Assembly: GCA_964480455.1 (NCBI GenBank)
Contig: CAYZQI010000153.1
Span: forward strand, 1-11,413
DNA: 11,413 nucleotides
Origin: an uncultured Cytophagaceae bacterium
GTDB lineage: Bacteria; Bacteroidota; Bacteroidia; Cytophagales; Microscillaceae
Direction: 5' to 3'
This document shows positions 4,285 to 6,178 of the stretch, piece after piece. The translations under genes were made by a program, and so were the position numbers. The notes below the pieces were generated by a model, which was given only the letters and a program-made list of their open reading frames with translations, was not told the origin of the DNA and made no database searches. Position 1 is the first letter of the stretch; each line of letters starts with the position of its first letter.

Positions 4285-4333
4285 AAGCCCTCGTACAAGC
4301 CTCTTGGCTTGCACGGCAAGTAAAAGGTAGTCA
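4285..4333 (+). repeat. Copy A of a roughly 49-bp intergenic hairpin repeat (REP-like). Its core is the GC-rich palindrome cgtacaagcc-tctt-ggcttgcacg.
   Basis: 41 of 49 positions are identical to 8762-8810 in the same orientation. The core inverted repeat is 4292-4301 / 4306-4315 with a 4-nt loop and one A:C mismatch. A second small palindrome, tagtcaaacgacta, lies at 4328-4341. Confidence 0.6.
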
Positions 4334-4344
4334 AACGACTAAAT

Positions 4345-4376
4345 TTGAATTGCACCCGTTTTCAATTTATTTTTTG
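4345..4376 (+). promoter_or_regulatory. Candidate Bacteroidota-type promoter for the ATPase/TOPRIM cassette. It has a TTG and an imperfect -7 box, TAttTTTTG.
   Basis: TTG is at 4345-4347 and 4350-4352. 'tattttttg' at 4368-4376 resembles the TAnnTTTG -7 consensus but carries one extra T. It lies 30-40 bp upstream of the ATG at 4407. Weak, motif-only evidence. Confidence 0.2.
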
Positions 4377-4406
4377 TATCTTAGTTGAATAAATATTTTG
4401 AAAAAT

Positions 4407-5471
4407 ATGCTCACTTCCGTTGATATACATAATTTTAAGTTGTTCAAAAGTCTCCACATTGAGTCTTTCAAAAGGGTTAATCTCATTATTGGGAAAAATA
4501 ACATTGGCAAAAGTTCACTTTTAGAAGCAATATGGCTACTCATTCATAAAGCACACCCCGCAGCAATTAATTTTATTTTTGGACAAAGAGGAGAGTTACA
4601 ATACAATAGTGTAAATAGAGAAGTCTTTGATGAGCAAAAAGTATTGGCTTTGTTTGAGGGTTTGTTCTATGGTAGAGAAATCGCTTACCAAGCCCAAGAT
4701 GCAATCAAAATAAGTGGTACTTTTTCAACCTCAACAGAAAGCATACAACTCTACTTTGATACCATAGAACCTCCTAATCTTTTTGATGAGTTTTTTGAAG
4801 TAGGTTTAAAGATTAGTGTAGGTGAGCAATCCGAAATTTTTAGACTTGATAAACTTAATAGACCTTATCACCCAACACGCCCTAATGGCAATAATGAAAA
4901 AAATAATGTGCGGTTTATTCAAACTGAAAAATTACAAGAAAATCAGCTTTTTTCTCTTTGGAGTAACATAGCACTTACAGATAGGGAAGAAGATATGATT
5001 AAGGCTTTGCAGTTGATAGCACCAGAAATCAGTAAGATTACCTTTGTAGAAGACGAAAGGAGTCGCTATCGCACGCGTTGCTATGCCAAACTAGTCCATC
5101 AGGAAAAAAGAGTTTTATTAAGTAGTATGGGTGATGGGATTAACCATTTGCTTGCCATTACTTTGCACTTATTAAACTGCGAAAAAGGAACTCTTTTTAT
5201 AGAAGAGTATGAAACTGGGTTACATTGGGCTGTTCAACTAGACTTATGGAAAATCATTTTAACCCTTGCAAAAAAACTAGAAGTACAAGTATTTGCTACC
5301 ACACATAGTACAGATACACTGCGCTCACTTACCCGTGCTGCCGAACAACTAGAAGAAACCGAGTCTTTACAGGTCATTAAACTTTCTAAGAAAAGAGAAC
5401 ACATAAAAGCCATCTTATACCCCGAAGAACAATTAACTACAGCCATTGAAGAAAACATTGAACTACGCTAA
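4407..5471 (+). CDS. ABC-type/AAA_21-family ATPase (OLD-family N-terminal ATPase-like, AbiLi/AriA-like). First gene of a two-gene candidate defence cassette.
   Basis: Walker A 'IIGKNNIGKSSLL'. A long insertion follows, then the signature-like 'LLSSMGDGINHLLAI'. Walker B/D-loop 'LFIEEYETGLHW' (compare AAA_21 'iDEPEnhLHP') and H-loop 'VFATTHS'. The ORF track starts at TTG 4398, but the ATG at 4407 (MLTSVDIHNFKLF...) gives the typical family N-terminus. The stop is at 5469-5471, 2 bp before the next start. Confidence 0.8.
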   Translation: MLTSVDIHNFKLFKSLHIESFKRVNLIIGKNNIGKSSLLEAIWLLIHKAHPAAINFIFGQRGELQYNSVNREVFDEQKVLALFEGLFYGREIAYQAQDAIKISGTFSTSTESIQLYFDTIEPPNLFDEFFEVGLKISVGEQSEIFRLDKLNRPYHPTRPNGNNEKNNVRFIQTEKLQENQLFSLWSNIALTDREEDMIKALQLIAPEISKITFVEDERSRYRTRCYAKLVHQEKRVLLSSMGDGINHLLAITLHLLNCEKGTLFIEEYETGLHWAVQLDLWKIILTLAKKLEVQVFATTHSTDTLRSLTRAAEQLEETESLQVIKLSKKREHIKAILYPEEQLTTAIEENIELR

Positions 5472-5473
5472 CT

Positions 5474-6118
5474 ATGAAGATACTCCTTGTAGAAGGTAAT
5501 CAAGACAAGGCTTTTGTAGAGGCTTTGATGGGGAGAAGAAAGATTTACCCAAAAGAGAGTTATGGTGATTTTGAGTTTCAAGTAGCAAGTGGTTATGAAA
5601 AAATATTAAATATCTTACCCACACTGATTATAGCAGAGAACCACGAGACTATTGGTATCATTATAGACTCAGATACAGAAAGACTTGCACATTGGAATCA
5701 GGTACTTGATATTTTAAAAGAATCGGGCTACTTATCGCTGCCAAAAGAACCTGATAAAAAAGGAACAATCATTACCCAAGAGGAGGAGGAACTCCCAAAA
5801 ATTGGTGTATGGATAATGCCCGACAACCAAACTGATGGGAAATTAGAAACTTTTGTAAAATACCTTATCCCTAAGCCTGAAAATGATGCTTTACTCCGAC
5901 TAGCACAAGAAACAGTAAATACATTGATAGAAAATCAAATTCACAAATTTAGTGAATCAGATAAAGAAAAAGCCATTTTACACACTTGGCTGGCTTGGCA
6001 AAAAGAGCCAGGACTTTCTTTGGCACAAGCAGTAACATTAAGGTTTAAAAACCAATTCGTCTTAGATGATAAAAAAGCAAATGATTTCATCACTTGGCTT
6101 CAAAAGCTATTCAAGTAA
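5474..6118 (+). CDS. TOPRIM-like small protein (OLD C-terminal / RloB / DUF4276-like nuclease-domain partner). Second gene of the cassette.
   Basis: The N-terminal 'MKILLVEGNQDKAFVEAL' carries the conserved TOPRIM Glu in an hhhVEG context. The DxD motif 'GIIIDSDTERL' lies about 58 residues later. The protein is 214 aa, and the ATG sits 2 bp after the ATPase stop (translational coupling). Family assignment is by motif only. Confidence 0.65.
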   Translation: MKILLVEGNQDKAFVEALMGRRKIYPKESYGDFEFQVASGYEKILNILPTLIIAENHETIGIIIDSDTERLAHWNQVLDILKESGYLSLPKEPDKKGTIITQEEEELPKIGVWIMPDNQTDGKLETFVKYLIPKPENDALLRLAQETVNTLIENQIHKFSESDKEKAILHTWLAWQKEPGLSLAQAVTLRFKNQFVLDDKKANDFITWLQKLFK

Positions 6119-6142
6119 CGCAGCACAGCTAGCATTCAAAAA

Positions 6143-6178
6143 TAAAAATGCAAGCAAATCTGATTTGCCTGCATTTTT
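6143..6178. terminator. Bidirectional intrinsic terminator between the convergent TOPRIM gene (+) and the lipoprotein gene (-).
   Basis: 'aaaaa-tgcaagcaaatc-tg-gatttgcctgca-ttttt'. The stem is 13 bp with one A:C mismatch. It has an A5 tract on the left and a T5 tract on the right, so it can function on either strand. Confidence 0.55.

Follow-up and report, generated by a model that had tools for sequence, protein, structure and literature searches.

The window analysed here is an 11,413-nt stretch of DNA (positions 1 to 11,413, forward strand) of contig CAYZQI010000153.1, from the assembly GCA_964480455.1 of an uncultured Cytophagaceae bacterium. It contains a compact pair of plus-strand genes, of which the first encodes an ATP-binding cassette (ABC) ATPase and the second a DUF3226 protein with a predicted TOPRIM fold. 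Together the two genes make up a horizontally mobile operon, complete in itself, that belongs to the PDC-M38/DUF3226 family. A first reading of the letters alone, hereafter the original prediction, had placed two open reading frames (ORFs) at 4407-5471 and 5474-6118 with a 2-bp gap, and this is borne out by the ORF listing, in which 2 nt separate the gene 1 stop codon from the gene 2 ATG. The two genes and the motifs on which the analysis relies are:

4407..5471, plus strand: gene 1, a 354-aa ABC ATPase (AAA_15/AAA_21; PDC-M38A in PADLOC; AbiLi-like)
4491-4514, plus strand: Walker A motif GKNNIGKS (G29-S36) of gene 1
5121-5138, plus strand: ABC signature SSMGDG (S239-G244) of gene 1
5193-5207, plus strand: Walker B motif LFIEE (L263-E267) of gene 1
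5304-5306, plus strand: H-loop histidine (H300) of gene 1
5474..6118, plus strand: gene 2, a 214-aa DUF3226 protein with a predicted TOPRIM domain and a C-terminal helical domain (PDC-M38B in PADLOC)
5483-5506, plus strand: LLVEGxxD motif of gene 2 (E7 at 5492-5494, D11 at 5504-5506)
5666-5674, plus strand: DxD motif of gene 2 ('DSD', D65/D67)
5804-5827, plus strand: GxWxMPxN motif of gene 2 (residues 111-118)
5846-5848, plus strand: E125 of gene 2
5969-6013, plus strand: K166...G180 of gene 2 (K...TWLAxQ...G)

The protein of gene 1 is an ABC ATPase resembling SMC, Rad50 and PtuA; it has an ABC head fold, and none of the four nucleotide-binding motifs is missing. It matches the Pfam families AAA_15 (3.7e-26, 93 bits) and AAA_21 (2.3e-17, 64 bits), and its structure model folds with high confidence. 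The Walker A, signature, Walker B and H-loop motifs named in the original prediction are all present, and K35, G242, G244, the catalytic glutamate E267 and H300 are invariant in an alignment of 70 homologues. The ORF listing offers TTG 4398 as an alternative start; the start was put at ATG 4407 because the resulting N-terminus, 'MLTS...', fits the 'MLxS' consensus of the 70 homologues. Conservation is unevenly spread along the ATPase. The nucleotide-binding lobes show majority frequencies of 0.66-0.72, compared with 0.32-0.46 in the insert (residues ~51-235), which is the least conserved part of the protein and probably a sensing or oligomerisation surface. At the other extreme is the C-terminus, IELR in the window (5460-5471): 70 of the 70 homologues end in (I/L)(E/D)xR with an invariant terminal arginine, a conservation suggesting that this end may act as a docking or regulatory tail.

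Gene 2 is covered almost from end to end by Pfam DUF3226 (PF11536; 1.5e-60, 205 bits at a cutoff of 27), residues 2-214 aligning with positions 2-208 of the 208 in the profile, while OLD-like_TOPRIM matches only weakly (E = 0.17, residues 2-23). Its structure model (predicted local distance difference test score, pLDDT, 93.6) has alternating strands and helices followed by a five-helix C-terminal domain, and in a fold search with Foldseek the top matches were five entries for the C-terminal region of OLD proteins, at probabilities of 0.97-1.0. As modelled, gene 2 has a TOPRIM fold nearest to the nuclease domains of the OLD family. A TOPRIM fold had been proposed in the original prediction from 'ILLVEG' and 'DSD', both of which are present. 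When PDB sequences were searched with gene 2 or the family profile, noise alone was returned, and only the fold comparison was informative.

The residues invariant in 75 sequences of the gene 2 family are E7, G8, D11, G61, D65, D67, W74, G97, G111, W113, M115, P116, N118, G122, E125, K166, T171, W172, L173, A174, Q176 and G180, a set that includes the three (Glu7, Asp65 and Asp67) singled out beforehand. In the model E7 follows strand 1 (residues 2-6) and D65/D67 stand at the end of strand 3 (residues 59-65). The two-metal site of Burkholderia OLD is built from E400, E404, D455, D457, T506/E508 (from the helix that opens the helical domain) and K562 (PMC6755086). In pattern and spacing, E7, D11, D65, D67, E125 (in the first helix after strand 4) and K166 of gene 2 mirror this arrangement, the assignments being secure for E7 and the DxD motif and putative for E125 and K166. 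The acidic set together with K166 is consistent with a candidate site for two-metal-ion phosphodiester cleavage. A further, weak partner in profile alignment is AriB (E 0.8-1.6 over the first 41-45 positions, not significant alone); here 'LLVEGxxD' meets 'LLVEGRHD' of AriB and E7 falls on E26, a residue experimentally essential in AriB (PMC12409363). The GxWxMPxN and K...TWLAxQ...G motifs are likewise invariant, and are family-specific and outside the canonical TOPRIM residues.

The gene 2 family is large and its members are alike in size. A word-index search gave 444 homologues, all of ~205-230 aa, from Microscillaceae, cyanobacteria, Planctomycetes, Verrucomicrobia and Bacteroidales, and an exhaustive profile search gave 4,789 DUF3226 family representatives at 50% identity clustering, of which the best 150 are all of ~160-255 aa, that is, stand-alone proteins and in no case fused. 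An exact-sequence lookup of the gene 2 protein of the window returned no record. Gene arrangement was compared in a sample of 81 DUF3226 loci from metagenomes and IMG/VR. Wherever the sequence upstream extends over 1,100 nt or more (55 loci), a homologous ATPase gene lies immediately upstream on the same strand (55/55). The stop-to-start gap is below 50 nt in all 74 measurable loci and -1 to +5 nt in 47 of them. The pairing of the ATPase with the DUF3226 protein is obligate. No third gene is conserved with the two, as no family occurs more than three times in the flanks of 16 non-redundant long loci (92 proteins). The partners differ in their rate of change: in 52 of the 55 loci the nuclease is the better conserved of the two. 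Mean identities to the window proteins are 31.9% for the ATPase and 36.5% for the nuclease, and the difference grows in close relatives (37% vs 54%, and 48-50% vs 60%). The ATPase evolves faster than the nuclease, especially in its insert, a divergence resembling that of a sensor.

Comparison with catalogued systems places the pair within one of them. In PADLOC, gene 1 matches PDC-M38A (PDLC04611, 2.2e-81, and four more PDC-M38A models at 1e-24 to 1e-44), and gene 2 matches PDC-M38B over nearly its full length (PDLC04624, 1.3e-53; PDLC04623, 6.7e-43). Gene order, sizes and both models fit, and no difference was found; the cassette of the window is a typical PDC-M38 member and not a new kind of system. 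The suggestion of an undescribed or minimal variant was overstated in view of these matches and of that to DUF3226, and the protein sizes, earlier thought unusually small, are typical of the PDC-M38A and PDC-M38B models (362-383 and 219-220 positions, vs 354 and 214 aa in the window). The PDC systems are a set of 145 computational candidates, proposed because their genes lie embedded in BREX, DISARM or type I restriction-modification systems ('guilt by embedding'), and PDC-M38 is found in the supplementary cassette table of that study (Payne et al., bioRxiv 10.1101/2024.01.29.577857). A literature search found no paper naming PDC-M38 or DUF3226 in its text.

Several better characterised systems share parts of this design. 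The original prediction had compared the split of ATPase and TOPRIM protein with the logic of AbiL, PARIS and DUF4276-type pairs. Gene 2 has no match to RloB, DUF4435 or DUF4276 in Pfam at E <= 1. AbiL of Lactococcus also consists of two genes, an ATPase and a small partner of the TOPRIM superfamily, and the AbiLi model PDLC02336 of PADLOC matches gene 1 end to end (4.6e-56, positions 1-340 of 340); AbiLi is the closest validated relative of gene 1. The gene 2 effector, however, comes from another TOPRIM family, and AbiL was rejected because gene 2 matches neither RloB nor, in PADLOC, AbiLii at E <= 1. PARIS resembles the pair in having an AAA_15/21 ABC ATPase gene upstream of a separate TOPRIM nuclease gene, and AriB shares the N-terminal LLVEGxxD of gene 2; the AriA models of PADLOC match gene 1 at 1.7e-26. 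The published PARIS rule calls for at least 32 bits to AAA_15 or 27 bits to AAA_21 in the ATPase and for a DUF4435 partner (PF14491) at 27 bits or more (PMC9122126). With 93 and 64 bits gene 1 lies well above the ATPase thresholds, but PARIS was rejected for want of a DUF4435 match in gene 2.

OLD and GajA are single polypeptides, unlike the split pair of the window. A fused Class 1 OLD (as in P2 Old or Thermus OLD) was rejected because the window holds two ORFs with a stop codon and 2 nt between them, and Gabija or a Class 2 OLD because no UvrD-like helicase gene follows downstream, where a terminator is followed by a lipoprotein gene in convergent orientation. In Septu PtuA and the retron-associated PtuA-like ATPases, the partner is an HNH nuclease (PtuB) and not a TOPRIM protein. 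HEC-01 has in common with the pair an ABC ATPase and TOPRIM architecture and an embedding in helicase-methylase-ATPase (Hma) systems. Its similarity to the window pair is nevertheless marginal (HEC-01A to gene 1 at ~1e-13 to 3e-12; HEC-01B to gene 2 weakly, at 0.012 and within residues 4-69), and the two are probably separate families.

The base composition of the pair sets it apart from the rest of the contig. Its GC content is 0.354 and its GC at third codon positions (GC3) 0.289, against 0.423 and 0.397 (GC3 range 0.382-0.434) for the other eight genes. The 34-36% estimated for the cassette in the original prediction and the contrast to the flanks are real, although the values given for the flanking genes were slight overestimates: 44% for the upstream gene for a homologue of the major vault protein (MVP), which is actually at 42.4%, and 49-51% for the downstream lipoprotein and sucC genes, actually at 46.0% and 45.0%. 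Synteny was analysed in 80 MVP loci from GTDB species representatives. None of these shares another window gene, even at 84% MVP identity; in none is the pair present in the 10 kb that follow the MVP gene, and nucleotide similarity to these loci ends at the MVP stop codon. As no other window gene is shared, a direct empty-site comparison is impossible. Two related metagenome-assembled genomes (MAGs) possess both the MVP gene and the pair, on different contigs and in unrelated neighbourhoods, the pair being accompanied by LysE and GlnRS genes in the first MAG and by genes for CvfB and a phosphoribosyltransferase in the second. The pair is compositionally foreign, accessory and positionally unconserved, in line with the horizontal acquisition proposed at the outset.

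The same data bear on whether the two genes might be a housekeeping module for DNA repair or recombination, the counterpart of RecF (an SMC-like ABC ATPase of ~360 aa) and RecR (a TOPRIM protein of ~200 aa). Despite the similar sizes and folds this is highly improbable, as the foreign GC3 and the absence of the pair downstream of MVP in all 80 loci, combined with its presence elsewhere in the two related MAGs, do not suit a housekeeping function. The recF model (TIGR00611), with its cutoff at 172 bits, gives a score of only 39.9; no RecR-type family in Pfam matches gene 2, and RecR is not among the top fold matches of gene 2. The pair is, moreover, plasmid-borne in some genomes and decayed in others.

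The DUF3226 family is found on nine plasmids. The most compact setting is a 6.4-kb ColE-type mobilizable plasmid of Citrobacter freundii (NZ_CP055541.1; locus L168, 4096-5942), where the annotated genes are the pair, replication and mobilization functions and one small ORF, which makes the pair the only annotated accessory cargo. Several Acinetobacter and Klebsiella plasmids of 4-14 kb also carry it, one copy adjoining a BrnT/BrnA toxin-antitoxin system. A search of complete E. coli genomes with the copy from the Citrobacter plasmid gave no match. In the sole IMG/VR case (locus L087, 1-12727) the pair is flanked by an integrase gene on one side and a Schlafen/AlbA_2 gene on the other, and P2-type tail genes (GpD, GpU) are found at a greater distance on the contig. 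In two metagenome loci it is embedded in Hma systems, in the orders HmaA - GmrSD-like - pair - HmaB (L140, 50-9334) and HmaB - pair - x - HmaC (L102, 1000-9912), which resembles the way in which the PDC candidates were derived. Damaged copies exist as well. In a related Cytophagales MAG the ATPase lacks residues 117-292 in three independent samples (L004, 7444-8624, also L005 and L006), and on the Acinetobacter plasmid pAHTJR2 (L169, 2014-3858) the ATPase is annotated in two pieces; the DUF3226 gene is intact in both cases.

Such contexts raise the question of whether the pair serves its carriers rather than their hosts, that is, as a maintenance module for plasmids and other mobile elements (addiction or competition between elements) and not against phages, with a nuclease that would harm cells or competing elements when the carrier is lost or challenged. 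Its position as only accessory cargo on the ColE-type plasmid, its occurrence on the small Acinetobacter and Klebsiella plasmids, once beside BrnT/BrnA, and the contig with integrase and P2-type tail genes all suit this explanation. Most instances are, however, chromosomal and solitary with no integrase or replication gene nearby, the window included; copies persist in which the ATPase is dead but the nuclease intact, which fits poorly with a simple toxin-antitoxin logic; and embedding in Hma is the very signature used for predicting phage defence. Maintenance is on balance considered doubtful as an explanation.

Pairings of an ABC ATPase with a TOPRIM protein are recurrent in bacterial immunity, as in OLD, Gabija, PARIS, AbiL and retron Eco8. 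By analogy with OLD, Gabija, PARIS and Septu, the two genes are moderately likely to encode an ATPase-gated two-metal TOPRIM nuclease acting in defence against phages or mobile elements. The ATPase would bind the nuclease and keep it restrained until a cue derived from a phage or mobile element altered its ATP-dependent state; the nuclease, freed or activated, would then cut nucleic acid, and replication of the invader would be halted, possibly at the expense of the cell. DNA is slightly favoured as the predicted substrate because the nearest folds are OLD DNases, while RNA could also be the target in view of the Trp-rich motifs specific to the family and of an N-terminal motif like that of AriB. 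A bolder and rather unlikely extension is that the pair forms a mechanistically distinct 'minimal OLD-like' immune module. In such a module the PtuA-like ATPase would gate the nuclease through its insert and (I/L)(E/D)xR tail, and the Trp-rich motifs (GVWIMPDN and HTWLAWQxEPG) would confer a substrate or trigger unlike those of OLD, which nicks or degrades DNA, and of AriB, which cleaves tRNA.

A number of observations weigh against the proposed defence function. The PDC systems are explicitly computational candidates with a predicted defence role, and HEC-01, the most similar architecture so far assayed, protected against no phage tried in the single assay published (bioRxiv 10.1101/2024.01.29.577857). 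The family occurs in 1 of 2.9 million viral contigs, and GenBank phage records gave no match. Most neighbourhoods consist of housekeeping genes, and in the window the neighbours are genes for the MVP homologue, a lipoprotein, an ABC transporter ATPase, DUF4835 and sucC. Two of the 16 long loci are confirmed inside a defence system; the PADLOC matches of other neighbours are not assigned to a locus. As to the proposed mechanism, E125 and K166 are matched to OLD residues by spacing and not by superposition, and a broken ATPase gene stands beside an intact nuclease gene in the second MAG and on pAHTJR2. The nuclease alone thus appears to be tolerated, which is compatible with either direction of regulation.

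A last point of this kind concerns the ATPase of the window itself, which has a glutamate, E266 (5202-5204), where at least 90% of homologues have the Walker B aspartate. This substitution, and the ATPase decay seen in relatives, could be taken to mean that the window copy is a non-functional remnant and E266 an early sign of its erosion. Both ORFs are however full length, all other invariant residues are intact, both protein models fold with high confidence, glutamate is a conservative replacement for a metal-coordinating aspartate, and the cassette retains its own terminator. Decay of this copy is accordingly held to be unlikely.

With 354 + 214 aa, the DUF3226 pair is among the smallest split versions of the ATPase/TOPRIM combination, and is spread across many phyla (about 4,800 representatives at 50% identity). 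This compactness would make it a convenient model for the control of a TOPRIM nuclease by an ABC ATPase and for the choice between DNA and RNA. The main value of the window itself lies in its correct annotation, as a candidate defence cassette of the PDC-M38 type that is mobile and located in a Microscillaceae-like genome.

The flanks of the cassette contain four further elements:

4120..4210, plus strand: nested hairpins (4120-4129/4179-4188 and 4149-4165/4168-4184) and, after them, a T-rich run, from an inverted-repeat search
4287..4318, no strand assigned: REP-like (repetitive extragenic palindromic) element CCCTCGTACAAGCCTCTTGGCTTGCACGGC, with hairpin arms 4292-4301 and 4306-4315
4319..4406, plus strand: AT-rich 5' region, presumed to bear the promoter (GC 0.31 across the intergenic region 4114-4406)
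6144..6178, no strand assigned: hairpin whose 17-nt arms are 94% complementary, preceded by an A-run and followed by a T-run, from the terminator scan and inverted repeats

The hairpins at 4120..4210 probably form the terminator of the upstream MVP gene and mark the left edge of the low-GC block, although the terminator scan made no call at this position. The left hairpin, described as REP-like in the original prediction, retains that designation because its 16-nt core, CAAGCCTCTTGGCTTG, recurs identically at 8774-8789, giving two copies where 0.01 would be expected, and two copies of the core were seen in 0 of 200 shuffles. The whole element, CCCTCGTRCAAGCCTCTTGGCTTGCACRGC (~30 nt), thus occurs twice, with its second copy at 8767-8796, and both copies are intergenic. 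No sigma-70-type match was found directly upstream of gene 1, in a scan that excludes promoters of the Bacteroidota type. On the right, the hairpin at 6144-6178, also foreseen as a terminator, was called by the scan on the minus strand; with its flanking A- and T-runs it looks like a bidirectional intrinsic terminator common to the cassette and the convergent lipoprotein gene, and hence like the right edge of the cassette. Direct repeats in the flanks are limited to short AT-rich 11/12 matches (at 4247, 4322 and 6102), which are taken to be due to chance and give no evidence for a target-site duplication. The window was negative in scans against Rfam and for tRNAs, and therefore neither a tRNA-linked integration site nor a known RNA partner is present in it.

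Two observations concern the neighbouring genes. The MVP gene (1612-4113, plus strand) encodes a bacterial protein of 833 aa that is homologous to the major vault protein of eukaryotes (Pfam MVP_shoulder, 8e-31, and Vault_3). At least 114 relatives are found in species-representative genomes, among Cytophagales, Riflebacteria, Leptospiraceae, Polyangiaceae and Saprospira, and the gene neighbourhood is unconserved even at 84% protein identity. On the other side of the cassette, the lipoprotein ORF as listed (6201-7127, minus strand) overlaps the upstream ABC ATPase gene (7039-7659, minus strand) by 89 nt. Judging from the internal signal 'MKKLALLLL...FNAC', the true start of the lipoprotein probably lies near 7028, which would leave a gap of 10 nt between the two genes and suggests a small ABC-lipoprotein operon.

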